From Tetramitus jugosus (taxonomy: Eukaryota; Protista; Heterolobosea), in NCBI GenBank assembly GCA_937625935.1, contig OW569386.1:186001-250000 (forward strand): a stretch of DNA of 64,000 nucleotides, written 5' to 3'. The notes below the pieces were generated by a model. It was not told where the DNA came from. It did no database searches and saw nothing but the letters and a program-made list of their open reading frames with translations. The translations under genes and the position numbers were made by a program. Positions 7,257-64,000 of the stretch are shown piece by piece (the first letter of the stretch is position 1; every line of letters starts with the position of its first letter).

Positions 7257-8612
7257 TCAGAGCTCGTCGTGTGAAATCTTGTGAATCGATTTAACGGAGG
7301 GCATCTGCTGTGTGATGCAATGCATGCCACCACCACCAAAGTTAATGGAGTCTGTATCGATTTGAGCAATTGTTCTTCCAGGGAATACTGTTTGGAAGAT
7401 TTTGAGTGCTTGCTCATCCTTCTCCTTGTGGAGTAGTGATCTACATTCCTTGTAATACTTTGGAATCAAGACAACCTTATTAGCGATGATAAAGTTCAGG
7501 TAACTGGCAGCAGAAACAACAGTGACTGGACGAGAGATATCAATTGTTGATCCATCTCTCATGTCCATTGCAGCAAGCTCATTGAACACAAAATCGTTGC
7601 TATCCATCTCGACTTCGATCGATGGAACAGCAGGGACACGAACAATGTTGAATGGCTTTCCGTCTTGATCCGTAGCTCTCTGCAAAATGTCCAAGTTCTT
7701 CTTCATGTTATCATAGGTAATTCTAGCCAATGGATCACTGTCTTTTTCGTCTTCTGGAACTTCAATCAACAACACTGTGTTTTCATCCACAAATCGAATG
7801 AATTCATCCAAGTGACCTCCCGTAGCCAATGCAGTATACAGATTGGTTCCAGGAATCTTTCCATAATAGGAAAGCTCATCATCAGGCAAACCAGCATCGA
7901 ACCACACAATATGATTCACGTTCAACACTCTCTTCATTTCCTCAGCAATCTGATCCAAAGTATCGAACCCTTGATCAATATTTCTCTGCAATTGAACAAC
8001 CTTGCTCATGAACAGTGTTCCTCTTCCATTAAACTCTCGGTCACCACCTTCAGAGATCAATGAACTTCTTCTCACTGGCAAATTCAATTCTTGAGCAATG
8101 AGACGATCCACAGCCTCTTCTACCAAGCTCTCTGGATCCGTTGGCTTCAAATAACTCCAAACATTGAAACCAAAGTCAACAATGCTTAGCTCTTGCTTCT
8201 GTTCATCCTTTAGAAAGATGGGACCCATGTCTCTCAACCAAATATTGACATAGGGAACCATGTGAAACCTCATTCTTGACACATTTACTCCAAATTCACT
8301 TGAAAGCTGTTGCTTTGCTACAGCAAGCACAGATTCATTGTGAACGAGGTAATCCACAAAAAATTGGGATGAATCTGGATTGAACTTGAACATGGTGTTT
8401 ATCATGTTGGCTTGTGTCTCAATAATGGCATGTCCTTGCTTGAAATTAAAGTTTGGATAGGCCATCCAAATGGATTGCACTGGTTCGTGCTCACCAGGGA
8501 ATCTGAGATGAGGAGTCAACGTTGTGCATGACGATGGAATAATTTGTGTGCACAATGCAATGACAATCAATGTCACAACCACTAGAGCGAGTGTGGAATA
8601 ATTTGCTCTCAT
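7257..8612 (-). CDS. Agmatine deiminase / Porphyromonas-type peptidylarginine deiminase family, with signal peptide and C-terminal HDEL
   Basis: FPGEHEP, WLRDMGP, SEGG, GHLDE, ASYLNF and GGGGMHCITQQ (catalytic Cys). N-terminal MRANYSTLALVVVTLIVIALC; ends SHDEL*. Confidence 0.9.
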   Translation of the reverse strand: MRANYSTLALVVVTLIVIALCTQIIPSSCTTLTPHLRFPGEHEPVQSIWMAYPNFNFKQGHAIIETQANMINTMFKFNPDSSQFFVDYLVHNESVLAVAKQQLSSEFGVNVSRMRFHMVPYVNIWLRDMGPIFLKDEQKQELSIVDFGFNVWSYLKPTDPESLVEEAVDRLIAQELNLPVRRSSLISEGGDREFNGRGTLFMSKVVQLQRNIDQGFDTLDQIAEEMKRVLNVNHIVWFDAGLPDDELSYYGKIPGTNLYTALATGGHLDEFIRFVDENTVLLIEVPEDEKDSDPLARITYDNMKKNLDILQRATDQDGKPFNIVRVPAVPSIEVEMDSNDFVFNELAAMDMRDGSTIDISRPVTVVSAASYLNFIIANKVVLIPKYYKECRSLLHKEKDEQALKIFQTVFPGRTIAQIDTDSINFGGGGMHCITQQMPSVKSIHKISHDEL

Positions 8613-8744
8613 TTTTTGCTTTTTGATTGAATTTGACCTTGCATAATTTCCCGCTTTTGTCGTTCCAGAAAATTCTGGAATATGTTCCCAAAAGCAACCA
8701 CAAATTTCTGCTTTTTCAAACGTTGAAGAAGCAAACAGAGAAAA

Positions 8745-10565
8745 ATGACACAACAACTACGACCATCACAGAGCATAAAAGATGAACATCACCCTGCTAT
8801 ATCAACAGCATCATCACAGAGCATCTATGATCTCATCAGAGCTACAGAAGAAGAAGACGCTGAACATGATGAAAATGATGATGACCAACAACAAATTCCA
8901 ACATCTACACTGGACATGACCACTCATACTCACTACCATGGTACTCAATCACAATACAACAACAACAATCATAAAGGTGAGATAAATAATGATGATAGTG
9001 ATGATGACTCTCAAGACTTTTTCAAGGAATCATCGTTTGATGTGTCATCAGATGGATTGACCATGAGTCACGCACTCAACATGTTGCTCAACAATGAACG
9101 ATTACCATGTGAACAAGCCTTTCCACTCATTGATCAATTGTTGATCGAGTTTCATAAGCTAAAAATTTTTTTGTTGCGTGATTTTGTCTTGTTGTTGAGC
9201 TGTGAGGCATCTACGGCAGAGCAGCATCGACGATATCAACAGGCACGTGACCGGATCATGACTTGCAAGTTTGTGTTTGCTCAAGATGAGAATCATGTGT
9301 TTTCTAGGTTTAATTTATCAGAGGAGGATCAACGTGGTCGATCTATTGTGGATCAAACATTGATTGTGAATCGGTGCAAGCAAGAATCGATTGATTTACT
9401 GTTTTTTGAGTTGAATCAATTGTTGTTGGTGCGTCCAGTGATTACTGCACTCAAATTTAAGCAACATGCGAGTCGAAAAACAGTCTTGTCGTTTGGTGAT
9501 TCGAAATTGGATCGATTGTTGGGTGGTGGTCTACGAACGAGGTGCATTACAGAGTTGTGGGGCGAGAGTGGATCGGGAAAGACTCAATTGTGCATGCAAT
9601 TGTTGTCCATGACTGTGACTCCACAGTCCGTGTTGGGAGGAATGGGATGTCGAGCAGTGTATATCCATTCGGAACCATTCCCTGTGGATCGATTGTCGAT
9701 CATGTGTGATGAACGGTTCAATCAGATTGAGCAAATAAAGGAAGCACAGAGAGCGAAACTAGGCGAGAATGAGGAGATTAGCTCAGATTTGGACATGATT
9801 GATGCGCAGAGTGATCTCATGAGTCGAATTTTTACCGTGTCAGTGTCTGCGATCACAGACTTTATGGAGACAATTGACAAGAAATTGATGGAGCATTGTG
9901 CGAGATGCGAGGACAGCACACCAATCAAATTAATTATTGTAGATAGTATTACGGCTCTATTTAGAACGGAGAATGCAATGACGAGGAGTGCGCAGTTGGG
10001 AGATGTCGTCAATAAGTTGCGTAGAATATCGGAACGATTTAATTTATGTATATTGATTGTGAATCAGGTGAGTGATCATTTCTCAAATGATACGAGTTTG
10101 TTACCGTCAATGAATGATCACACGTCAACACAAAACAATTCAGAACAAATCATACGGTCACAGATGGCTTATGAGGCTGTTCTCTATTCTGATCCGAATC
10201 TTATTGAGGGAGATGACGAACAGGATGAAGTTCTGAGGCGATACAGAAGGCAATTTTATTTGTCTAATGTTGGAGGAAGAGTTCGCAAGAAGCCTGCTTT
10301 AGGATTGGCTTGGACATGCTATGTGAATATGAGTTTGATGTGCTCAAGAAACGAACGAGCGTCGAACATAACTTTTAAGACTGAGAGTCCTCATAAACGA
10401 AGGCGTATTTCAACTGGGGAGGATGTTTCCATGTTGGACGATCAATTTGAATCACAAGAAGTAGTTGTGAGACAATTACACGTTGTGTTCGCTCCTCATC
10501 TGAAAAACGGGGCACAATCGTTTATCATTGAACAGTCTGGCGTGAGGGGCATAGACATTACATAA
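8745..10565 (+). CDS. XRCC3: RAD51 paralogue XRCC3/Rad57-like
   Basis: LDRLLGGGL..ITELWGESGSGKTQLC (Walker A), LIIVDSITALFR (Walker B), VNQV, KPALGLAW and R.L.VVFAPHL typical of XRCC3. Confidence 0.8.
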   Translation: MTQQLRPSQSIKDEHHPAISTASSQSIYDLIRATEEEDAEHDENDDDQQQIPTSTLDMTTHTHYHGTQSQYNNNNHKGEINNDDSDDDSQDFFKESSFDVSSDGLTMSHALNMLLNNERLPCEQAFPLIDQLLIEFHKLKIFLLRDFVLLLSCEASTAEQHRRYQQARDRIMTCKFVFAQDENHVFSRFNLSEEDQRGRSIVDQTLIVNRCKQESIDLLFFELNQLLLVRPVITALKFKQHASRKTVLSFGDSKLDRLLGGGLRTRCITELWGESGSGKTQLCMQLLSMTVTPQSVLGGMGCRAVYIHSEPFPVDRLSIMCDERFNQIEQIKEAQRAKLGENEEISSDLDMIDAQSDLMSRIFTVSVSAITDFMETIDKKLMEHCARCEDSTPIKLIIVDSITALFRTENAMTRSAQLGDVVNKLRRISERFNLCILIVNQVSDHFSNDTSLLPSMNDHTSTQNNSEQIIRSQMAYEAVLYSDPNLIEGDDEQDEVLRRYRRQFYLSNVGGRVRKKPALGLAWTCYVNMSLMCSRNERASNITFKTESPHKRRRISTGEDVSMLDDQFESQEVVVRQLHVVFAPHLKNGAQSFIIEQSGVRGIDIT

Positions 10566-18943: not shown

Positions 18944-19108
18944 TCGAATTGGAGAACTTAGCTTAACATTGTTGCTGTAGGAAACCAACAATTTCGGCCA
19001 TATAAAAATCCTTAGCGCAGAAGAATGCTTTTGGGTGTTCTTGATTTTATGTTCACAAAACTAACGAACAACACAAACAATTGAAAAATCAGTAGTACTA
19101 CATTGCAA

Positions 19109-20191
19109 ATGCCTGAAGAAAGAGTTTCCATTGTTTTGGATACGTGCATAGCAAATGACATGTTCGAATTGTTGAAAGCGAAAATCAACACTCATTTGGA
19201 ACAATCATTCTCAACCCGGTTCGAGTACGTCGCCACGCTTGGAGATGACTCTTTGTCACAGGGCGAACAATATTCAATGTGCATCACATGGGACGTTAAA
19301 ATTTCACACAGGCACCATTGCATTGCTGTTTCAGATTTTACCAACAACAGAATTCAATTCTTTGATTTGAAGACAAGAGAGTATAAAGCAACACTCTCCA
19401 CTACAAAGCCCATGTTTCTGTGCATTGAGAGGAATTACAAGAATGATGCATCACAGCATGATGCACTCATTTTTGGAACATACACGAATTGCATTTACAA
19501 GTATGATTTAGATCAGGTATTGAGAGGAGAAGAGTGTGAACCAATTTGGATGTTGGGAACACCTGACGAGAAGGGAAGTCGATTGGGTCAGTTTATTTTC
19601 CCACAAGGCATTGCGATGTGTTATTCGAGAAAGTATGACACACTGTTTGGCTCACATGTGACACAAGATGATCGATTACTGTTTGTTTGTGACAATTGTA
19701 ATCATCGTGTCCAAGTATTGAGATCCAGTGATGGGAAGGTTTTGGAATCCTTTGGTGTCCGAAGGAATGACGAAGATGAATCATCACAGAAGCCACTTGA
19801 ATTAATTGAATTCAATGGACCAAATGGAATCGATTTGGATGAAAATGACAACATAATTGTTGCTGAGTATAATGGCGAAAGAGTTCAAATCATTGGAAGA
19901 AGTGGAGAGGATGGACAGTTGACTGTTCTTAACTCAATAATGCTGAATACACAGCCATTAATAAGAAATGTTGTGTATGATCGCGTTGCACGGAATCTTG
20001 TCATTAGCGATTGTGAGGCTCACATAATTTCAGTGCTTGAATGGAGCGGCAAAGTTGTCGCTTGCTTTGGAAGTTACGGGTACACAGAATCCAATCACTT
20101 TGTCGGTCCATGTGGTTTGTGTTTGAATGAATTGACTGGAGAGCTGTATGTGGCTGATTCGGCGAACAACAGAATTCAAATTTTCCACTAA
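19109..20191 (+). CDS. NHL-repeat beta-propeller protein
   Basis: Repeated F..P.GI / VCD..NHRVQV / VADSANNRIQIF motifs. Confidence 0.85.
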   Translation: MPEERVSIVLDTCIANDMFELLKAKINTHLEQSFSTRFEYVATLGDDSLSQGEQYSMCITWDVKISHRHHCIAVSDFTNNRIQFFDLKTREYKATLSTTKPMFLCIERNYKNDASQHDALIFGTYTNCIYKYDLDQVLRGEECEPIWMLGTPDEKGSRLGQFIFPQGIAMCYSRKYDTLFGSHVTQDDRLLFVCDNCNHRVQVLRSSDGKVLESFGVRRNDEDESSQKPLELIEFNGPNGIDLDENDNIIVAEYNGERVQIIGRSGEDGQLTVLNSIMLNTQPLIRNVVYDRVARNLVISDCEAHIISVLEWSGKVVACFGSYGYTESNHFVGPCGLCLNELTGELYVADSANNRIQIFH

Positions 20192-20245
20192 AAGTTGGTC
20201 GGACCGATTTTTGAACCACAGCTTCGAAAACACAGAACAAAGCAC

Positions 20246-21245
20246 ATGTCCGAGGAAAGAGTTTCCATTATTCTAGACGCTGGCATAGTGAATTCTTTTT
20301 TCCACTTGTTTAAGATGAAAATCACCTCACCATTAAAGCAATCTTTTTCAATGCGGTTCGAGCACGTTGCCACGCTTGGAGATGACACTTTGTCACAGGG
20401 CGAACAATATTCAATGTGTATCACATGGGACGTTAAATTGCTGTTTCAGATTTTCACAATCGTAGAATTCAGTTCTTTGATTTGAAAACAAAAGAGTATT
20501 TGGCAACACTCTCTACCCCAGAAGCCATGTTTCTGTGCATTGAGAAGAATTTCAAGAATGATGCACTCATTTTCGGAACATACACGAATTGCATTTACAA
20601 GTATGATTTAGCCCAGATTCTGAGAGGAGAAGAGTGTGAACCAATTTGGATAGCTGATCAGTTCTTTTATCCACAAGGAATTGTAGTGTGCTATTCAAAC
20701 AAGTACGAGAACCTGTTTGGCTCTCATTTGGCCCGAGGTGATCGATTACTGTTCGTTTGTGACGAGTGTACCCATAGTATCAAAGTATTGAGATCCAGTG
20801 ATGGAAAGATATTAGAATCAATCGGTGTTAAAAGGAATGATTCATCACAGAAGACCCTTGACGTAGTTGAATTCAATGGTCCAAGTGGGATCGATTTGGA
20901 TGAACATGACAACTTAATTATTTCTGAATATAGTGGTCGAAGAATTCAAGTCATAGGAAAAAGCGAAGCTGGACAATTGATTGTTCTAAAATCATTACCA
21001 TTGAATACACAACCATGTCGACTAAGGGGTGTTGTGTATGATCATATTGCACGCAATATTATTGTGTGCGATTGCGAAGCCCACACAATTTCAATACTTA
21101 ATGGGGGCCAGGTTGTTTCTTGCTTTGGAAGTTACGAGTTTTCGGAAACCAACGAATTACGGTGCCCATCCGGTTTGTGTTTGAATTGACTGGAGAGCTG
21201 TATGTGGCTGATACCGCGAATAGCAGAATTCAAATTTTCAAGTAG
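20246..21245 (+). pseudogene. Tandem NHL-repeat paralogue, frameshifted
   Basis: Colinear with 19109-20191, with a 22-nt deletion at ~20437 and a 4-nt (TGAA) deletion at ~21187. Confidence 0.85.
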
Positions 21246-39493: not shown

Positions 39494-39519
39494 ATGACTG
39501 ACCTGCCCAAATCTTGTTT

Positions 39520-41500
39520 CGTTGATAGTAGAAACTTCAAGTTCAAACGTTCGTTAAATGTGAGATTTCTTGTGTAGCACCGCACAGCGGAAAAAAAGTC
39601 ATCTTTCCAGAAATGGAATGATTGGGAAACACCGCTGTCTCTCGTCAACCAATAACTCAACCGTTCTTTATTAGTGGATACAAAGGAACTATCGATTTTG
39701 ATATATCCTCCACATTTCAGCAATACCTGCTGTCGGCATTGTTTCAAGGTGGTGAACTCTGTGCGAGAAGCATAGAGTTTAATCTTACGTCTTGTAAGAC
39801 CGTGGAGGACTTTGGTGAAGAACAAATTTACGTTTCATCAATAGCGCTTGAAGTTGATTCCCTTCAATGATTGGTCACAGTCTCGGAGAGTACAATGCTT
39901 CCTTATCCTTGTGTCGAGATCAAAACGATTGTAAAAAGGATATTCGAATTGATTATTGTCAATACAGTTATCTATGATTTATTCGATAGTTCTAAAAGCT
40001 TTTAGAATGTTAATACACAGTTCTTGACGTGGTTTCTTTGTTTAAAGGTCGTCTTTGTGTGAGTGATCAGATCAACTCGCCTCCTTGGTGCTCGTTCAAC
40101 TATCATCGATTAAAGATACTGCGAAGCATGATTCTTCAGAGTCTGATGCGACAGTACAAGTACCGGATTTTCCCGCGATGATAAATATTTCCTGGATCTT
40201 CTGAACAATCGCAACAAATGGTCATTCATTTATTTATTGACGGCTCGACAATTAATCCAGTTCTTTTGAGAACATTAGAAATGTTTTTGAGTTGTATTGT
40301 CCTTGTGTTTGGTATGGAAGTGTTCATGAAGTTTTAATTGTTTTCATGCTGTTAATTGCTTCTAATTGTAGCATGTTTGAGGAGAAAGATTGTTATACCC
40401 CGACCGAACCACGAAAAACAACTGGTTCAACCAAAACACACGCACAACAACCCAAACACCCAAACAACCAAAACAGCGTCTCTGACGAGATGATTTTTCC
40501 ACAAGGATCAAAAGAACAAAACGGCAAAACAACCATTAAACAATGCCAAGACAGAGTTCTTAAAAAGAAAAAGTTCAATAGGACATGTGGTGAGTAGCAA
40601 GAATTGGTTCAAGACGCACCAGCCATTCCTTGTACTTCTCCTTCCTTTTTTCGTTCTTCCTTTTCCTTCAGCGCGTCTCTTTCTCACAATTTCCGGAACC
40701 GGATGAACGGTTTTTTTCAGTTCTGTTCCAGACATTCCCATGCTCAACGGTGAGTGACCACCGGCGAGGGACCATCTATCAGTTTCCTCTAAGCTGCGGA
40801 ATTGGTGAAGTTGTAAGACTGTCTTGAGTCCCTTTACAACACCATCTTACTCGGTTTTAAAAGCACCTGTCATTTTCTCTGTTTGATTCAACCCACACAA
40901 CAAATACAACAGCACTATGCCTCAGGGTGCGTCTAAAGACGGCAAGAAAGAGAAAGAGAGAGACTGTCAAAAAGGATGAATACTCATCACATTCCGTGGT
41001 CAAGGTCGGTCTGAAGTCTCTATTGTTGCATCCAACTCTGTTACCAATCATACAAACTCAAGCTCTGGATACTACAAGGATTGCTCTTCGACTCACAAGA
41101 TTTAAACATATTCGTTTTGAGACACTTGGAATCTAACTATCAAATTCCTTTATTAGATCAAAGAGTCAACATACTAACTCTCTCATTGATATTCAAAAGA
41201 CCCAAGAGATGGCTGAATTCTTTAGGCAAGTCAGAAGGATGTATGCCTTCATGAATCATCTATTCAAGGAATATGAATGATGGGAATGCAAAACATCTGC
41301 ATACTACAATGTGAATATTAAAAACCTAAGAACCCGCCTGAATTGGTTAATAACCTAGGTCTTTCCTTTCTTGTGGAGCTTCAAGCATTGAATCATGCGA
41401 TCAATACTCGCGAAGCAAGGAGAACGGACTGAAAAGCTAAGGTCTCATTGTTCCATCACACAAGCAGTTCTGGTATCGATGCGAGGTGCTTGGATGTACC
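39520..41500. pseudogene. Heavily decayed coding relics, possibly F-box genes on both strands
   Basis: Broken frames with F-box-like tails: KNWINCRAVNK (minus, ~40230-40270) and IYQF..LRNW*SCKTV (plus, ~40775-40825). No intact ORF. Confidence 0.3.
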
Positions 41501-42249
41501 CATAAGCCGTGCAAGAACCACGGGAGTTTAGAGATTCATTTCGTTCGTGAACATAAAATGACATGTGATGATGCAGCGATGAAAGGTGGTAAAAGCTGAC
41601 AGTATTAAAACCGTGGTCAAACAAAGATGTGATGATAGAATGTGTAGCGCGAGAGGAGCATCCAACAACATGGAAGTGTTTCAGATAAACCCCATAATTT
41701 GTTTAGGGGATTGTGATACTGCCAACGGCTATAAGTTTTCTGATGGCCATTTAACTGGCTCTTTGGTCTGAGATAAACTCGAAAATTGTTTCTTCGAAGG
41801 TCAATCACCCCTACCTATTGCCAGTAATAGCTGACGCAAAGAGGTGTTGGCAGTCCAAGTGCATAGAAGTCCATGGAATTTGTCCCAAAGATGTTGTTGT
41901 GTGCAGGTATTGGACTTTTTTATTACGAGTGGCGCCCCCATTCCCATTACAAACAAGATGTGAAGATTGTCAAGAAGGGTATCTTATTGTCCGTTACATT
42001 CAAAACCCGAAGTAGAATTGAAACAAAAAAACAAAAAACAAAAAAGGAACAGTGGGGAATTTTTTTGATGGATGAGTTCTCAGATGACGCCTATTTGATA
42101 GAAGATCATAACGAAGAAATTCAAGAGCTGAAATACAAAGTTCAAGATCAAGAAAAAAGAATAGAGCTCCTTGAAAAACCGTTGCTCTTCTCACGAAGAA
42201 AATCGGAAAATCAAAAAACCCAAAAAAATAAAGAAAAGTATATTTATAA

Positions 42250-43440
42250 CCATTTCTGATGCTACCATACAAAACGTGTTTCCTGCCCATCTTTTTAACT
42301 TCCAAAGATTGTGGATGTTAAGAAGTACTTCAAAGTAGTTACAGTTTGATACCGAAAAAAGAGGAAGCAACCAATTTCCATCTGCGTGGAGAGCGTCGAT
42401 ATTTTTATCACCGACTCATCATCTGTTTCATTCGAACTTGTTCCATTCCATGTAACAACAGCTTGGAGTTCTTTGAATGATGGAATAGATGTCTGTGTGT
42501 TTTGTTGGAGAACTCCCATATCGTCAAGACATCAAAGTGACGATACCATGATCAACACCAATCAAATATTCAGCACTTTCATTCAATTTTGCTTCTTTAA
42601 TGTCCTTGGATTCCTTTGCTTTGTTATTCTTATGATGTCCAATTAGCTCGTGTCTGAATTTTCTTTGTCACAAATGATTCATCAATTACTTCGTCAGTTT
42701 TAGCGCCAACAAGTGTTTGAACCTCTCGGATCAACACAGGAATAGTCTCTACCAACTCTCTTGGAGGCAATTTGATAAAATCATGGACTGAAGTGCTAAA
42801 TGTCTTCTGATAAGGTATTCAACAACCCTTCTTTGTTCTGACTTTGCGATAGATGAGTCAGATTAGTTGATTCATTCTGACCCTCATATTCTTCCTTAGT
42901 CTTGGTTCCAATGTGAACTTGACCATGTTGGAGATGTTGACATCGAGAGATCTGGCAACATAATTGATGGATGTGGCAAAACTCTTATAAATCATTCTGA
43001 CCTTGACTACTACATAGTCCATGTTGACAGACTCGTTGATGAGACTTAAGTTAAGGATCTTATGACCGAGGGTGATGATGTTTTTCCTCACTACACTTGG
43101 TCTCGACAAATTGCTCTTCCATGATGTGTTGTCGAAGAGTCGAGTGTTCATTGAAAAGCCTCGTAGGCCAATGAATACTTTGATGAGAAGGTCTACATTA
43201 ACCAGAGGAGTGAAATACAGTCATGGATTGACGACCGAGAATCGGTTGTCCTTTATTAAATTACTCTTTGGTGTTTCAAGGCAAACTTTTTCCTTGGATT
43301 TGGGTCATGTTCTACCAAAAAATATGGTGGTAGACTGCTAACTCCTAGTATGTGCAGCCAAGAGGAGTTCGATCATCACCAAAAACTGGAAAGAGTCATT
43401 GTTGCGTCATTGGTTCCATGAAGAGGTTTCAGATTTAGTC
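42250..43440 (-). mobile_element. Fanzor1 (TnpB-derived) nuclease relic, internally deleted and 3'-truncated
   Basis: Ordered fragments: TMTLSSF, NMTQIQ, FTPLVNVDLLIKVF, REC-like TSINYVARSLDVNISNMVKFTLEPRLRKNM (SINY at 42971-42960), RuvC-I-like YLIGVDHGIVTLMS (42562-42545) and NYFEVLL...LWKLKRW. Several stop codons. Confidence 0.5.
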
Positions 43441-43949
43441 CCCTACCTCACTTTTGTTGTCTGTGGCCTTCTTACTAATTTGTATTTGATCAAAAATATT
43501 AAATACGAACAAAGGAATCAATAGAGCAGAGGGATATCTAGAATCTCAGCGATCAAAAATAGGAAAAATAAAATATTCATTCCCTAAAATAGTTTCAATG
43601 TTCGATGACTTCCGTTGCAGTAAAAAAAGATTTATTTATTCATATTTACATTCATACAGGAAAAGAATGAAAATTTTCTCACCTACACCGCTTACCGTCG
43701 ACTTCCGACCAAAAACATTAATCACAAGAAAAAGACCAAACCGTGTTGCAGTGCGCAAGACACACGATGAGGAAACTGACCTCACCAGGTGATGTCATCA
43801 AGTTGAAACAACATCAACACCGTCACAACAATCGTCACCACTCAAGATTTACCTACATTGATTCAGATTATTCGAGGTTCTGAGGAAACCGATTTTGTGT
43901 TGTCAAAAGAGAGTTTGTTGTACATATTGCTACAGCGGAGTTCAAAAAC

Positions 43950-45000
43950 CTATTCCCCAGCTTTGAACAAATATGAATAACACATTTTCCTGTAAATTCG
44001 AACGTTACATTAATTCTTCTACTAGGACTGGGATCAAGAACCCCCTATGAAAGACCGCTTGGTTGCTGAATCTCCCACATCAGGTCGTAGGCAGGGAGGG
44101 GTCAGAGTTGAATATAATATCTGGACGCTTCCCAGCCAACTATCTTTCAGATACCCGAGAGATTCTACTACTCCTGAATCTTGATACAAGATCAATCATT
44201 GATATGAATATATGATTTGCTGGTTGCAGATGGTGATTGATCAGTGTGTTACTGCATGATTTGAATACTTGAGTGAAATCCACAAAGTGGAACCATGGTG
44301 TACCGTATTTTTTGGAGTGACCAATTATTCAAAACGGCTTCAGAGGGTTGCAGACAAGTCCCCGTCAGAGCAGCTCCCAATAATCTCACACACCAGGTTG
44401 GTATGTTAGAATTGTGAGCTTCATAAGTAGATTGATGGAGAACCTTAGACCTCCATTACAGGATGTCCAAGTCTGATTGTCGAATTGCCATCCAACGATT
44501 ATAAATGAAATTGAATCAGTTCATTGCCCAAAATTTCACTGAGAGTTTGTCTTGATCTCTCTACATTCATTGCATGCTTGCGCTTTGCCTCTGATCATTC
44601 TCAGATATGTCACAGCTCTGTGTTTATTGTTTTCAACAAGCAATGCCACAGTTTGACTCCTACCATTGACCAAGTTAATTCCTGCTGAGCAGTACGAATG
44701 GAAAAGGCGGATGCATCGAAACCTTGACATTGAGAAGTTGGCTCACATTTTTGAGATATCATAGGTTGAGTTACAACATCATGCCGTACTCTTGTGTGTC
44801 TTCTTTTCATTTTTTTCTTTCATTCTCTGACACGAGTTGTGTTCCATTTGGGTTGTTGTATTCATCTTCCATGTTTTCCCATAGCAATGCATCATTTTCC
44901 TCCAACAAAAAACAAAACTTCCTAAGAAAAGGTTCCAAAGGTGTACCTGTTGCAGAAATGGTTAGTTTTTTTCATCATGTGATTCACGACTGTTGGTTGT
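43950..45000 (-). pseudogene. Decayed member of a locally repeated gene family (copy 1 of 3)
   Basis: 43987-44132 shares CCTGTAAATTCGAA.GTTA..TAATTCTTCTAC.AGGA, CCCCCTATGAA and AATATCTGGACGCTTCC with 57215-57343. Confidence 0.55.
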
Positions 45001-45231
45001 ATTCTGGCACCACAATTTGTTGAAAACGCAAAATTTTGACGGTTTATGTGAAATGGTACAATTTATAGAGGAAGAAAAAGGTCGCAAAAGAATTAATCAA
45101 AATGGTGGAACACCTCCAAGGCTCACTCCATCAAGCTGCTATGTAAGTCCCGATTATGTAGGAGCGTTAAGGTGTCTTATCGGGAAACCATAATGTTTTT
45201 ATTATGGCTTGATAGACAGTAGACCGCAACC

Positions 45232-46473
45232 TTAAAAACCTTCATCGAAATACGATCCCCAGGCCTCCTCTCGCCCTGTGCCCCACTTTAGTTCGTGAAC
45301 AACAATCTTCTCGCCACAACAAAAGATCCAAGTCTTGTGCGACCACACCTTCTTCAGGATGAGTTGCACGGTTCTTGCGCCAGTGCTCTCAATCCCACAA
45401 GTGCATCTCACCATGAATATCATTGTGACTACGGCGACAACAATGTTGAAGAAAGAGAGAATCGGAATCGAGATCATCCAAGCTTCTAGGTCTGCCCGAT
45501 GCCTCAGAACTGTCACTCCAAAATAAATTTGACTCGCCAAGAACCCAGCCTGGAGAATAATCATACCCAATCCAGAAAACAGAGTTAGGAATACGCTACG
45601 ATAGCTAGTCAAATGCTGCGCGAGTATGTGGGCTACCCCATAAGTTTTGTGGTACTTGCAATATTCAGTCACCATATTTCCTGTGGGCTCATGTCTGGCA
45701 ATATATCTTTCCTCATAGGGTTCTTCTGTGTACTCAGCGATATACTTTTCCACGAATGACACCTCTTTGTACCCAGCAATGTACGACTCTTCATAAGGTA
45801 CATTCTCATAACCATCCTGGACTGTTTCTGTGTATTCTTCAGTTCCATCCTCCACTCGAGTAGGGACAGTTTCGGTCACGTATTGGCCATCCGGGATAAC
45901 TCTCGTTCTTGGAACCTGTCTGGATTTGTACACCTGTCTGCTGGCGGGTTCGCTTCTGTATTCAGTGGTGAAATAATTATTTCCACTGGAGCTGTAGGTG
46001 TAAGAGATGTGTTCTTTTTGGTAGGCAACCTGTTGGTAGTAGAATTCAGTTTCATAATAATACTCAGTGTCATAGTAGGTCTCGGTCCTGGATGTATCTT
46101 TCCAGACAGAGCGGGTCTCATTGACGGTTTTGTATTTGGGTCTGGTCTTCTGTACTTGCTTGTAAACGGGCCTTTGTTTGTATGCGATTCTGGTTTTATG
46201 AATGGGCTCCTTTTTTTTTGCAGGACGTTCTTTGTAAACGGGTTTCTGTCTCGTGGTCATCCTGGTGGCATAAATGGGTTTCATTTCTGGTTTCTTCAAG
46301 GGCATGGTCTCAGTTTGTCCTGAATCATACACTAATCTCCGGGCTAGGCACATGAGGATGCCCCGAATAATGAAAAAGAGAAGGAGACCAATCAGGGACA
46401 GCAGAAGTGGTGCAAAAACTGTTGCCCCAAACAGCGAGGAAGAGACAATAGCATATTTGATGGATAATATCAT
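45232..46473 (-). CDS. Novel membrane protein with a giant mirror-repeat beta-hairpin loop
   Basis: 413 aa from ATG 46473. TM segment(s), then basic PxY repeats, SSSGNN turn, acidic Ix(G/E)Y repeats, then two TM helices. Confidence 0.75.
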   Translation of the reverse strand: MILSIKYAIVSSSLFGATVFAPLLLSLIGLLLFFIIRGILMCLARRLVYDSGQTETMPLKKPEMKPIYATRMTTRQKPVYKERPAKKKEPIHKTRIAYKQRPVYKQVQKTRPKYKTVNETRSVWKDTSRTETYYDTEYYYETEFYYQQVAYQKEHISYTYSSSGNNYFTTEYRSEPASRQVYKSRQVPRTRVIPDGQYVTETVPTRVEDGTEEYTETVQDGYENVPYEESYIAGYKEVSFVEKYIAEYTEEPYEERYIARHEPTGNMVTEYCKYHKTYGVAHILAQHLTSYRSVFLTLFSGLGMIILQAGFLASQIYFGVTVLRHRADLEAWMISIPILSFFNIVVAVVTMIFMVRCTCGIESTGARTVQLILKKVWSHKTWIFCCGEKIVVHELKWGTGREEAWGSYFDEGF

Positions 46474-46745
46474 TCTTCTTCCTGAACTTGGGTTGGTAAA
46501 GGGTTTGGGTTTGTTTTTTGGTTGGACTGATGTGATCCCTGTTCTTCTTCCGAAATTCGGCCTCTCACTTGTCAAACTAAGGGGAGTAAACACTCCGACT
46601 CCAAGTACTCCAACCAGCATCCATGGCTAAGACATAACGCTGGTATGTCATCTGGTTTTTCACCCGAAGAACGGAGTCTTGGTTGATCTTCCTTTTCTGA
46701 ACAAAAACTCCATCTCGAATTCTCCTCACATTCGAACAAACAAAA

Positions 46746-47495
46746 ATGCCACAACAAACAAACAAGTCAGGCCAGCCGGATAACAACACACCTCAGGTTC
46801 TGTATTGCAATGTGAGTACAAGAGATCAAGTCACGAATGAAATTATAGGAGAATACATGGTGAAGGGCACAACTTACCAAGTAGAGAGACTTCGCTCCAC
46901 GGTCAACCGAGTCCTGTTGAGCTCTGTGCTCGCTCCAAGCAATGTAGGATATCAACAAGCAGGATCTAGTTATAACGAGAAGAGAAACGATGTGATGAAG
47001 ATGAGGCACTCTTTTGCTTCTGACAAATTTCATATTCATGTTCTGGTGGATGACAAGCATGCGTATAGTTGTGTTGCATTCTCGTACACGAGAACAGAGA
47101 TTTGCTACAATTGTTTGGAACGAGTACAAAAGCAGTTGCAAGAGCAAAGGACAAACAAACTCAATTTGCAGGTGATCCTTGCTTCGTCTGTGCAGTTTGT
47201 CAACGATCCAGCCAACTCGAAGATATTGAACGCCCAGAATCAGATTGGTGAGCTCAAGGGAATCATGTTGAACAATGTCGATAAGATTTTGGATAATATG
47301 GAATATGTGGATCAGTTGTCACACCAGACTGAACGATTGAATGACGGTGGTGAAACATTTCTAAAGAAGACCAACACGGTGAAGAATCACAAGATGGGTC
47401 GTATGATTGTGTTTGTGCTCATTCTTCTCCTGATTATTGGTATTGTTCTGGCAGCAGGAGGATTCACAGTTTACATGCTTCTCATTCGAAAATAA
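46746..47495 (+). CDS. Longin R-SNARE (VAMP7-like)
   Basis: N-terminal longin domain (FHIH....AYSCVA...CYNCLERV); SNARE motif QIGELKGIMLNNVDKIL...L...TERL; C-terminal TM. Confidence 0.8.
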   Translation: MPQQTNKSGQPDNNTPQVLYCNVSTRDQVTNEIIGEYMVKGTTYQVERLRSTVNRVLLSSVLAPSNVGYQQAGSSYNEKRNDVMKMRHSFASDKFHIHVLVDDKHAYSCVAFSYTRTEICYNCLERVQKQLQEQRTNKLNLQVILASSVQFVNDPANSKILNAQNQIGELKGIMLNNVDKILDNMEYVDQLSHQTERLNDGGETFLKKTNTVKNHKMGRMIVFVLILLLIIGIVLAAGGFTVYMLLIRK

Positions 47496-55404: not shown

Positions 55405-55456
55405 TGAGCGAAATAAAAATTGAATACAAACAAGAAGGAAGTTTATGTCTTGTTGT

Positions 55457-56728
55457 TTACTTGGGTGTCGTGTCAAATTGTACACAAACACCAAAATGAT
55501 CACTGAGGTGAAGATATTCTTCCTTGGGTGGTTGGGGTTGGTTTCTTTGATTGGACTCGAGGAAAGAGTATCGTTGAGTTTGATTGCTTCTCGTTCGTGC
55601 ATTCTTGTCTGGCCACACTGGATCCATTGCAAATATGGTCATGTCTCTCGGATTCAATGCTTTTCCTCCAGTCCATCTGTAGATACGGTCGAGCCTCCAC
55701 CTGAATGGTTCTTGGTTCTGATCTACAGGCAAACTCATCATTTGCACAAGTGTGTTTAATGTGTTGTCCAGTGTGTATCCTGGATCGTTCGCACCCTTCA
55801 GTTCCACCCACAAATCAGTGAATTGACTTTTGCTGACGAATTCATCTTCGTTTTTAAACAAGAAGTTAAAATCACCCAGCATGAGATACTCATCAAATTC
55901 GTTCATTTTGTCGTTGAGATACTGTTCAAGTTCAATCAGTTGTTGTCTTCTTTGTTCTATGTTGTGCTGTGCATTACCAGCTTTCAGGTGAAGACCACAT
56001 AGACCTAGTCTCATGACCTTGTCATTGCCCAACGGAACTGCTATCTTGGCAAATAAACATGCCTTGTTCCTGGTCAATGGAACGAGTGACAGGTCTTCAT
56101 TGTATCCAAACTTGTATGTGTATTCGTCAAGGGACTCAATGGGAAACTTCGATAGAATAATGGTTCCATAGGGTACAACTGTTGAATAAGCAGTATTCAC
56201 AGTGTTATTGGCATCTCCCACTCTAAAGCTGGAACGACAAACTTCACTCAAGTAATAAGTGTTCATGATGAACTCATTCATGATTAATCGACTCAAATAA
56301 GTCGGAGTGACCTCGTTCAACACCAAGATGTCAAAGTTCATCTGTTCAAACATTTCAAACTGTTTCTCATATCTCACATGATTGTGCAACAATTCTGGTG
56401 TGTAATTGTCAAACAAGATGTTGAACGTGGCAACACGCAACTTTCCATTGTTCACATCACTTACAATATTTTTTGTAAGTGGTTTTCGTTTTGACGGAGT
56501 ATCAACAACGCAAGTATATTTCTCTTGATCGAAACGAAACACTGGCAGTTTGATACTTTGACCTGGCTTAGGCTTCAGAGTGCTTCCTTCACCCCTGTTT
56601 TGCAATGATTTTTCCGTGGTACTGCTGAGAGCAACCGAGGTTTCATTTGTGGATAGCTGTGATATTACACCAGGAGTGAGAGAGGTGGGATTGAGGTGAT
56701 CACAGATGACCGAGAGACGTTTTTTCAT
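55457..56728 (-). CDS. EEP-superfamily phosphodiesterase (TDP2-like) with N-terminal PTS2
   Basis: TFNI, LNEV, HLKA, GDFN, DLW....GYT.D...N, RLDR, SDHFG; MKK-RLSVICDHL. Confidence 0.85.
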   Translation of the reverse strand: MKKRLSVICDHLNPTSLTPGVISQLSTNETSVALSSTTEKSLQNRGEGSTLKPKPGQSIKLPVFRFDQEKYTCVVDTPSKRKPLTKNIVSDVNNGKLRVATFNILFDNYTPELLHNHVRYEKQFEMFEQMNFDILVLNEVTPTYLSRLIMNEFIMNTYYLSEVCRSSFRVGDANNTVNTAYSTVVPYGTIILSKFPIESLDEYTYKFGYNEDLSLVPLTRNKACLFAKIAVPLGNDKVMRLGLCGLHLKAGNAQHNIEQRRQQLIELEQYLNDKMNEFDEYLMLGDFNFLFKNEDEFVSKSQFTDLWVELKGANDPGYTLDNTLNTLVQMMSLPVDQNQEPFRWRLDRIYRWTGGKALNPRDMTIFAMDPVWPDKNARTRSNQTQRYSFLESNQRNQPQPPKEEYLHLSDHFGVCVQFDTTPK

Positions 56729-57509: not shown

Positions 57510-59573
57510 AACAAATGGTGCGTGAGCACCACGTTGCGGAACTTTTATTTTTCTTTTTTGAGAGCAGGCTTGGCTGCTCTCAATTTTCTAACATGATGTG
57601 GTGCTTGCCCAGTGGAGTGGCAGGCCTACGCAACATGATTCATTCTCTTCTTGGATTGTTGTTTTGATCCCTTCTTCAGGGATTCGTTGCGCGGGCCTCC
57701 ACTACCGTCTGGAGCACCACTGGTGAGGTCAGATGGATCCGTAGTCCTAGCCAGTTGGTAGGACCTACGGAGAGTACCTCACTTGATACTGGCCAACCTG
57801 GCCGGGATCTTATTACCAGCAGTGTCACCAACCGTGACACGTGCTGATCGCTTCTTGTTTTCCTTGAGTTGGGGACTCTGTAACTCGCAGTCGGGGTACA
57901 GAGATCCAACTCAACTGGATCTTCTTGGGTGGTTGTGCTTCTTGCACGGTCCAGCATGATTGCTCGGGCAGCAATCTCCTTCTTGGCTTTCTTGAACACC
58001 TCGGAGGTGTTCAATACTAGCTCGAGGATTGCTCTGTTACGAGCATCCTCATCCATGGTGTTGTTGGTTGGCTCTTGGGTGACCGTAGTTGGAGTGCGTC
58101 CTTGGAGACGGGGACACGAAGGGAATCCGGTTGACGGAAGCCATTTCTTTTAACACACTGACTTGGTGGCGCAGGTATGAGAGCAGGCGTGTCTAACAGA
58201 GCAGGCACGTTCTCAATTGTCTAACATGGTGTGGTGCTTGCCCAGTGGAGTGGCAGGCCTACGCAACAGGATTCATTCTCTTCCTGGAATGTTGTTTTGC
58301 TCCCTTCTTCAGGGATTCGTTGCGCGGGCCTCCACTACCGTCTGGAGCACCACTGGTGAGGTCAGATGGCTCCGTAGTCCTAGCCAGTTGGTAGGACCTA
58401 CGGAGAGCACCTGACTTGATGCTGGCCAACCTGGCCGGGATCTTGTTGCCAGCAGTGTCACCAACGGTGACACGTGCTGATCGCTTCTTGTTTTCGTTGA
58501 GTTGGGGACTCTGTAACTCACAGTCGGGGTTACAGAGATCCAACTCAACTGGATCTTCTTGGGTGGTTGTGCTTCTTGCACGGTCCACCATGATTGCTCG
58601 GGCAGCAATCTCTTTCTTGGCTTTCTTGAAAACCTCGGAGGTGTTCAATACTAACTCGAGGATTGCTCTGTTACGAGCATCCTCATCCGTGGTGTTGTTG
58701 GTTGGCTTTTGGGTGACCGTAGTTGGAGTGGCGGGGCGGGACTCCGGCATGATCGACTCCCAGTCATCGGTCGTAGACGGAGTCGAAGGTTCGAATTCGG
58801 AGATTCGGTCCGGCGTCCTTGGAGACGGGGACGCGAAGGGAATCCGGTTGTCGGAAGCCATCTCTTTTAACACACTGACTTGGTGGCGCAGGTCGTCCAC
58901 CACAGCCAGGAGCTCTTGATACATCTTGGTCAGCCTCTTGCTGACAGCCTTGACAGGGTCACGTGGGCGTGGAAGGAAGCGCTTTGCTTCCACCTCCACT
59001 GGCATGGCTTGAACGTTCCGAAGCAAAGCTTCGGCATACGTTTCAGACTCCATCACAACAAAGGCAGTGTTGTGCTTCTTGAGCACATTCTTGACCTTTG
59101 TTGTGCCGAGCATGGCCTTGATGTCGTCCTCCGTCTTCCCTTTGACGCCGTGGAGGACGACCTTCTTGGCACAATCAACGTTGTGCTTGAGTGCTGCCTT
59201 GCAGCCACTCATCTTCTTGTTGCGGTTTGAAGAATTCAACAAATGGGTAAATGTTGTCATCAACAACAGTTACCCACGCAACAAACCTCTTGGGGCCCTT
59301 CTTGATGACTTGGACCCTGGTGAGCAAGTCACCAAAATCCAAGCCAATCTTCTTGGCCAAGGCAGCTTTTGGAGAGTCATCGCACTTTCCAGTGATGATG
59401 ACCTCCTTGCTGCTTGGAGCAGTTCCTCTTGGTGCTGTGGTCCACACAGCATAGCGTGGATTCTCATACTCACGAACAACAGGGGTGTGTGTTCGTTTTT
59501 TCATCGGCGTTTTTCCATCACGACAAAGGCAGTGTTCCTGCAATGTTGTTTTGTTCCCTTATGTTATGTTATG
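57510..59573 (-). mobile_element. GC-rich element encoding an ORF1/gag-like protein (two RRM-like domains + coiled coil), frameshifted, no ORF2
   Basis: GC is visibly higher than in the flanks. RRM-like KEVIITG..FVAWVTV (ORF 59543-59175) and KKVVLHGV...TAFVVMES...AEALL (ORF 59266-58259). The 3' part is tandemly duplicated and the 5' end abuts a tRNA fragment. Confidence 0.5.
57560..58892. repeat. Tandem duplication of the element's 3' part (about 57560-58176 vs 58198-58892)
   Basis: High-identity colinear copies; the left copy lacks ~83 nt (58731-58813). Junction microhomology GCAGG. Confidence 0.9.
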
Positions 59574-63560: not shown

Positions 63561-63649
63561 TGTTCTTTTTTGAATTTCGCTGCTGCCTTGGTTGTATTCT
63601 TCTTTTTGTTGTAAATTGTGGCGTTAATCTAATTTTTTCTGTGCCTCGT

Positions 63650-64000
63650 TTACTTTGTCGTGTCAAATTGTACACAAACACCAAAATGATCACTGAGGTG
63701 AAGATATTCTTCCTTGGGTGGTTGAGGTTGGTTTCTTTGATTGGACTCGAGGAAAGAGTATCGTTGAGTTTGATTGCTTCTCGTTCGTGCATTCTTGTCT
63801 GGCCACACTGGATCCATTGCAAATATGGTCATGTCGCTCGGATTCAACACCTTTCCTCCAGTCCATCTGTACACTCTATCGAGTCTTCTCTTAAACGGTT
63901 CTTCGTTCTGATCCACCGGTTTGTTCATCATTTGCATGAGCGTGTTCAGTGTGTTATCCATTGTATAGCCAGGATCCTTCACGCCCTTCAATTCCACCCA
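63650..64000 (-). CDS. Second TDP2-like EEP paralogue, 3' end (continues beyond window)
   Basis: PGYTMDNTLN, RRLDR, SDHFG; colinear with 55457-55810. Confidence 0.85.
   Translation of the reverse strand, partial: WVELKGVKDPGYTMDNTLNTLMQMMNKPVDQNEEPFKRRLDRVYRWTGGKVLNPSDMTIFAMDPVWPDKNARTRSNQTQRYSFLESNQRNQPQPPKEEYLHLSDHFGVCVQFDTTK

Follow-up and report, generated by a model that had tools for sequence, protein, structure and literature searches.

A gene on the reverse strand of the 64,000-nucleotide stretch of Tetramitus jugosus DNA analysed here (contig OW569386.1; hereafter the window, to which all coordinates refer) encodes a membrane protein whose first loop carries short motifs at regular spacing on both of its halves, and it raises the question of which structure such a loop adopts and what this structure could be used for. 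The initial annotation had proposed a single two-stranded beta-ribbon of approximately 110 residues per arm, roughly 35 nm long if extended, which projects from a membrane and acts as a tether, molecular ruler or surface filament, or oligomerizes into a tube. As detailed below, a giant beta-hairpin that is conserved among membrane proteins of an unnamed family is well supported. Residue numbers are counted from the ORF start at 46620, unless they are given in model numbering, which begins at Met50. The following features were assigned:

45232..46473, reverse strand: CDS of 413 aa from Met50 of a 462-aa ORF, intronless (basis: ORF, contig of run X6, matching Met in relatives)
46474..46620, reverse strand: 49 in-frame codons ahead of Met50, likely untranslated (differ in L001 and run X5; missing from relatives)
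46342..46470, reverse strand: N-terminal helix with TM1, residues 51–93 (AlphaFold2 helix 2–44, hydropathy; basic residues after it)
46009..46335, reverse strand: predicted outgoing strand, residues 96–204 (12-/10-residue P-x-Y units; basic, acidic near the tip)
45976..46008, reverse strand: predicted tip loop, residues 205–215 (pLDDT <50 at model residues 159–165; aromatic-rich)
45637..45975, reverse strand: predicted returning strand, residues 216–328 (basic near the tip, then acidic 11-/13-residue x-x-G units)
45604..45636, reverse strand: predicted short helix joining the hairpin to TM2, residues 329–339 (AlphaFold2 helix 280–290)
45502..45600, reverse strand: TM2, residues 341–373 (AlphaFold2 and residue-count analysis)
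45397..45483, reverse strand: TM3, residues 380–408 (hydropathy, AlphaFold2; basic residues and cysteines after it)
45232..45396, reverse strand: C-terminal tail, residues 409–462 (AlphaFold2: one helix, then low confidence)

The gene and its surroundings

Residues had originally been numbered from the ORF start at 46620, but Met50 at 46473 is the likely true start as judged from sequence, because P0002 and six other relatives begin at a Met that aligns with it, the upstream frame differs in the 97%-identical strain L001, and frame-breaking indels are found in run X5 at 46619–46624. The ends of contigs upstream of the gene in runs X6 (46502) and X8 (46492) provide a weak hint in the same direction. 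A 1268-base contig of run X6 spans 45239–46502 without gaps, and the gene therefore contains no intron. Most of the ORF is also covered by contigs of the metatranscriptome runs X5 and X8, which belong to different studies, and the gene is likely expressed, on the basis of assembled metatranscriptome contigs that may stem from RNA or DNA alike. Compared with strain L001, 8 silent and 7 replacing codons were counted, and the 26 in-frame differences listed comprise 11 silent and 15 replacing changes; within-species constraint on the protein thus appears modest. The ORF of L001 (69–1376) is four codons (QIYF) shorter where TM2 ends, and its hairpin has no indel.

The window consists of intron-poor nuclear DNA with approximately 41% GC and long open frames. 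Its genes encode a cullin, a DENN protein, a Rad51-like protein, a eukaryotic glutathione synthase, SNF2 and VPS9 proteins, a longin SNARE and a GH38 mannosidase, as well as NHL and Zn-cluster proteins. The hairpin gene is arranged head to head with the gene of the longin SNARE (synaptobrevin), with 272 bases between the two start codons (46473–46746), and this interval is likely a shared promoter region. A functional tie to this SNARE gene or to the VPS9 gene was considered and set aside, as the order of genes in so compact a eukaryotic genome says nothing about such a tie. The approximately 5.7 kb between the VPS9 gene and the hairpin gene (39500–45154) contain no ORF of 150 aa; strain L001 has approximately 250 bases at this site and keeps two crumbs of the sequence (40939–40992 and 40817–40844), and the region is an insertion/deletion polymorphism, perhaps of decayed mobile DNA. 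In runs X5, X8, and X1, positions 45067–45230 just past the stop codon have 10–50 times the depth of their surroundings and abound in loose ends, which looks like a short multi-copy repeat. Elsewhere in the window, a local duplication of 520 bases (57578–58096 and 58211–58730; 96% identity), an inverted duplication of 356 bases (55455–55810 and 63648–64000; 88%) and a tandem pair of NHL-repeat genes (19105–21239; 74%) were found. Positions 7257–8756 hold a gene of the Porphyromonas-type peptidyl-arginine deiminase family (E 6.6e-63), here in a eukaryote.

Register, charge and predicted fold of the loop

All motifs on which the ribbon had been based are present in the sequence: P-x-(Y/H) occurs in the basic arm at residues 115, 127, 139, 151 and 161, and EDG, QDG, IAG, IAE and IAR occur in the acidic arm with their third residues at 259, 270, 283, 296 and 309. 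The sums of the paired anchors were recomputed and are exactly those claimed (420, 421, 422, 423 and 424), with the tip motif SSSGNN beginning at residue 210. The reported swap of charges toward the tip was likewise recovered, with ETYYDTEYYYETE at 180 and RQVYKSRQVPRTR at 228. The net charge runs by segment from +15 (residues 97–170) over −4 (171–212) and +3 (213–245) to −12 (246–325), while the whole loop, which is of low-complexity composition and has 31.4% charged residues, carries a net charge of +2. The smoothed charge at residue i is anti-correlated with that at S−i, with a peak at S of 421–423 (r −0.71 to −0.76), and none of 2000 within-arm shuffles, which kept the composition of each arm, matched the strength of this charge mirror. 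As to the beta-bulge postulated for each repeat, the anchor sums do gain one per unit, but the site of the bulge within the unit fits two models alike.

AlphaFold2 gave no hairpin from the single sequence (pLDDT 45.9, and below 50 over residues 74–287), whereas it predicted one hairpin when supplied with an alignment of 13 sequences, three of which are near-identical; the best of five models reached a mean pLDDT of 75.0 (range 70.0–75.0) and the pTM was 0.40. The expectation that a structure predictor would return a long ribbon in the register described above was thus borne out with the alignment and not from the single sequence. In model numbering, the prediction comprises a helix (2–44), two strands (47–155 and 167–279) and four further helices (280–290, 292–324, 331–359 and 363–378). 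As read from the strand ends of the secondary structure and not from coordinates, the register corresponds to a sum of 322 at the tip, or 420 in ORF numbering, and of 326 at the base, or 424, and short strand breaks at 127–128 and 194–195 of the model oppose each other at sum 322. Both arms had been described as running into TM helices; this applies to the N arm, which starts from TM1, while the C arm enters TM2 via the 11-residue helix, and TM2 is succeeded by a third TM helix. Structure alignments join the first helix and two later helices onto generic three-helix bundles, so that the modelled hairpin is shut at its base within the membrane. Overall, it is very probable that the loop folds as one giant beta-hairpin. 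The proposed two-stranded ribbon, with its arm length of approximately 110 residues, agrees with this prediction, in which an arm would measure 36–37 nm if fully extended at 3.3–3.4 Å per residue. At a gp11-like rise of approximately 2.6 Å per residue, an estimate from the barrel-tilted strands of phage phi29 gp11 (PMC6542822), the arm would be approximately 28 nm long.

Relatives and bacterial proteins with similar arms

Word-indexed homologue searches returned 2, 2, and 3 proteins, among them P0002 (98% identity) and P0003 (34%), and a HMMER search over 1.84 billion representatives yielded 16 matches. Eleven of the 16 (P0002, P0003, P0006, P0007, P0008, P0010, P0011, P0012, P0014, P0017 and P0018) share the build of TM1, long loop, TM2 and TM3, entirely or in part; these relatives stem from JGI or Logan records. 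P0009, a fish repeat protein, was dropped as a chance match. Neither the window protein nor P0003 nor any of nine further relatives matched a Pfam or NCBIfam family at the cut-off, and a sequence profile search of the PDB found nothing at the cut-off (best E 0.3). Searches by tblastn with the loop gave no match in phages and one in plasmids (E 2), and a pattern scan confirmed none of 165 stretches from viral contigs and one of 83 from prokaryote genomes, the latter with the arm motif only.

If the two arms pair with each other, units should be gained on both of them, as the initial annotation had anticipated, and this is what P0003 displays with its 7 + 7 units as compared to 5 + 5 in the window protein. 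Its anchor sums are 408–414, and its tip region is 6 residues shorter per side. Moreover, the outer arms change jointly across nine sequences, a set that omits two near-identical and two N-truncated ones: the N and C arms are 53 and 86 residues long in the window protein, 65 and 100 in P0006, 77 and 113 in P0003, 42 and 74 in P0017, and 53/85, 51/86, 53/78, 53/87, and 51/90 in the other five. The lengths of the N and C arms are correlated (Pearson 0.95; slope 1.10, with 13/12 = 1.08; n = 9), a value that rests on three sequences, since six of the nine N arms measure 51–53 residues; by rank, the arms are correlated at only 0.61 (p 0.08). If extended, the hairpins of the relatives would span approximately 26–42 nm. 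In nine of ten sequences, despite inner loops that vary from 84 to 103 residues, the charge mirror is stronger than in every one of 300 shuffles; counts over relatives share ancestry and thus are not independent. In eight sequences the best mirror centre lies 1–4 residues from the anchor sum, compared with 9 in P0012. No mirror was recovered in P0008 (p 0.26), whose inner loop is much shorter.

The N arm of the window protein alternates between two faces over approximately 100 residues without a slip. Thr, Tyr, or Pro occupy 29 of 51 positions on the face of the anchor prolines and 6 of 51 on the other face, and Lys and Arg are distributed inversely, with 21 of 51 positions opposite the anchor prolines vs. 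3 of 51 on their side. The bias of Thr/Tyr/Pro is found at p <0.01 in eight of ten sequences and that of Lys/Arg at p <0.05 in seven of ten, and in the inner part of the returning strand the faces continue in register 420. With the anchors excluded, 47 of 50 prolines in the N arms and 18 of 23 in the inner C arms lie on one face; the exceptions belong to P0010 and P0012, and the face rules are obeyed in part by P0010, P0011, and P0012. In a beta-sheet, proline is tolerated only at positions whose backbone NH would be directed away from the partner strand; the same positions are preferred by pairs of aromatic residues and of Thr. A Thr/Tyr/Pro face that also bears the prolines therefore fits a self-stabilizing ribbon with partly blocked edges. 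With average KD values of −0.9 to −1.7, the N arm is hydrophilic on either face, for which reason a hydrophobic groove for lipid transfer was rejected, and the lack of a hydrophobic stripe on either face speaks against insertion of the shaft into a membrane. The tip of the window protein contains 6 aromatic or His residues in 20, and 5–8 per 20 are present in eight of nine tips, P0007 having only 2 aromatic residues. The motif GNNY is retained at the tip of P0003 and P0006, and tip sequences vary between subgroups.

Four HMMER matches (P0013, P0015, P0016, and P0019) differ from this build. P0015 derives from a Cyanobacteria MAG and P0016, by its record name, from Devosia. They combine a 7-residue x-x-G arm and a 6-residue P-x-Y arm around an insert, with 14/17, 31/31, 22/21, and 28/31 units on the two arms, respectively. 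A bacterial ORF (L002, 2671–4194) has a signal-peptide-like start, 11-residue x-T-G units, a tip containing Cys and Pro, and 10-residue P-V-Y units; these 10- and 11-residue units resemble the inner unit of the window protein, and by its motifs the ORF is likely a small member of the same hairpin design. The neighbouring gene resembles, by context, that of a phage capsid. The bacterial proteins are like the window protein in that they have the same motif pair, one additional residue per unit on one arm, and similar unit counts; unlike the window family, they have a shorter period, no TM1–TM3 frame, and a reversed arm order in four of five cases. P0013, P0015, P0016, and P0019 also possess a globular-looking insert of 140–310 residues between the arms, unlike the window protein, and are likely giant hairpins with a tip domain if their repeats are read in the same manner. 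A pairing rule of n vs. n + 1 residues per unit (6/7, 10/11, 12/13) seems to apply to these sequences. The same four proteins match the Pfam families LbR_Ice_bind and LED_rpt, mostly below the cut-off, and these matches may be a compositional mislabel.

Membrane side, proposed function and known systems

The distribution of basic residues bears on the side of the membrane on which the hairpin resides. Lys and Arg account for 4 of 114 positions before TM1, 28 of 135 after TM1, 15 of 135 before TM2, 11 of 144 in the loop between TM2 and TM3, and 26 of 127 after TM3. All nine full-length sequences have basic residues after TM1, and seven of the nine have none before it. According to the positive-inside rule, these basic flanks place the hairpin and the C-terminal tail in the cytosol, and a cytosolic hairpin is probable from these residue counts, which were used in place of a topology predictor.

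We assume, with slightly less than even confidence, that the protein is a stiff cytosolic spacer or tether of fixed length with an aromatic tip, which is the best reading of a role that we infer. The three-helix membrane protein would extend its first loop as an antiparallel hairpin approximately 30–37 nm into the cytosol, and TM1 would pack with TM2 and TM3 and thereby close the hairpin base. The ribbon could be held together on its own by Tyr/Thr pairs on one face and by charge pairs across the strands, the extra residue (bulge) of each unit would coil it, and the prolines would reduce outward backbone hydrogen bonds, so that sideways growth of the sheet would be hindered. Each added 12/13 unit would lengthen the rod by approximately 4 nm. 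Finally, the aromatic tip might dock on another membrane or on a partner protein, in which case the rod would fix the distance between two compartments in the manner of coiled-coil tethers. It is possible, but doubtful, that the beta-ribbon acts as a ruler which sets the membrane gap in 4-nm steps via a P-x-Y/x-x-G code (6/7, 10/11, 12/13) shared with bacterial exported hairpins.

A likely cytosolic location, as indicated by the residue counts, would also suit a scaffold in which the ribbons pack together or with beta-rich proteins as an epiplastin-like membrane skeleton, anchored by the TM bundle and located beneath the cell surface or around an organelle. Its long strands with 31% charged residues recall the strands predicted for epiplastins (PMC6212826), and a second ribbon could lie against the uncharged Thr/Tyr face. 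However, the composition is off the epiplastin profile as given there (Val+Ile 11% vs. 33 ± 7%, Thr 12% vs. 3%), and the charges are sorted by arm and cancel inside one molecule (+2 net), which makes a scaffold unlikely. Several copies could also assemble edge to edge on a ring of TM helices into a beta-barrel tube or conduit like the tail tube of phi29 gp11. This protein, too, is helical at its ends and contributes two long antiparallel strands per chain to a 24-strand barrel of 12 copies (PMC6542822); barrels likewise show strict alternation of two faces, and the top rows of a Foldseek search against the PDB were gp11 (E 1.4e-3), the Andhra upper tail and beta-pore stems. Yet no PDB row was obtained at E 0.001, and the query TM-scores of 0.13 or less reflect only the long strands. 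By general sheet geometry, moreover, the one-face prolines in both arms occupy sites needed for bonds to a neighbouring hairpin, and the formerly suggested tube is disfavoured by this pattern and appears rather improbable.

A surface filament had been a further suggestion, and an outward or lumenal hairpin might serve as such, as an adhesin stalk or as a wall element. Known long hairpins are extracellular, the bacterial L002 ORF with related arms starts like a signal peptide, and the N-terminal hydrophobic stretch of approximately 45 residues has room for two helices; even if the first helix really is two, however, the basic flank remains next to the hairpin. The basic residues after TM1 and TM3, which favour a cytosolic hairpin, argue against this placement, which we regard as distinctly unlikely; moreover, in the two proteins checked for them, the hairpin contains neither a pair of cysteines nor an N-glycosylation site common to both. 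That the loop is a disordered polyampholyte, whose symmetry is a by-product of repeat expansion, is hardly credible. The low-complexity composition and the pLDDT below 50 in the single-sequence prediction would agree with disorder, but the joint changes in arm length and the charge mirror in relatives, the unbroken period-2 pattern over 100 residues and the confident hairpin model obtained once an alignment was supplied contradict it.

In the Foldseek search, gp11 (6QZ9) was the best row with a TM-score of 0.13 and an rmsd of 38; the query was the model of the whole protein, so that the search, including its lack of rows at E 0.001, is weak with respect to the hairpin itself. A fold search of viral models yielded three rows at E 0.001 or better (TM ≤0.14), and VIA fold rows with Z 8–9.7 align solely to the three-helix bundle and are generic. 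According to PMC6542822, the 156 residues of gp11 that are involved form two strands of 180 Å. In the model, the window protein resembles gp11 in that helical N- and C-terminal parts close the base of a single long antiparallel hairpin, but its hairpin would comprise approximately 230 residues in 12/13 units and stand on TM helices in a eukaryote, with eukaryotic neighbour genes and no phage tail context. The needle of T4 gp37 is a six-stranded domain made from three chains in a phage fibre (PMC9659904). It is similar in its out-and-back antiparallel strands with a tip, whereas the window protein is membrane-anchored, and no match in sequence or fold was found between the two.

Among protist proteins, the epiplastins (alveolins, articulins and epiplasmins) were compared. 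According to PMC6212826, their charged, low-complexity middle domain is predicted to form very long beta-strands and contains 25 ± 7% Val, approximately 35% charged residues at near-neutral net charge, mixed acid-base dyads, and little Gly (0.4%), Ala (1%) and Ser (1%); only two epiplastins in that survey carry predicted TM domains, and its supplements list candidates from Naegleria and Percolomonas. Like these proteins, the loop from the protist studied here is highly charged, nearly neutral, and predicted to form long strands free of helix. Unlike them, it is rich in Tyr, Thr, Glu and Lys, with charges sorted by arm and in a protein with three TM helices; Val and Val+Ile amount to 7.9 and 11.4% in the window protein and to 7.1 and 13.1% in P0003, and the window loop contains 3.1% Gly, 3.5% Ala, 5.2% Ser and 11.8% Thr. 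The VPV motifs of the articulin subclass, as presented in the same survey, do not occur in the loops of the two proteins checked. Searches of the literature on giant or long beta-hairpins, membrane tethers and alveolins turned up no description of this architecture.

According to the model, the loop would represent a known kind of structure, but one that is far longer, membrane-anchored and likely cytosolic. The long hairpins that surface among solved structures stand as oligomeric barrels; a ribbon approximately twice as long as the gp11 strands, likely without a barrel and in a eukaryotic membrane, would widen the repertoire of beta-hairpins. The family would offer a readable code, consisting of two faces, an extra residue per unit and mirrored charges, and natural length variants of approximately 26–42 nm that might be used in protein design. 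Golgin-type coiled-coil tethers and the spacers of membrane contacts are alpha-helical rods or stacked domains. By analogy with golgin-type tethers, the proposed working is that of a membrane-anchored cytosolic rod with a set reach, but unlike in these tethers the rod is predicted to be a single two-stranded beta-ribbon with both chain ends in the same membrane. If true, coiled-coil tethers would have a counterpart made of beta-strands, and the pairing code would provide a general design rule for two-stranded ribbons of arbitrary length.
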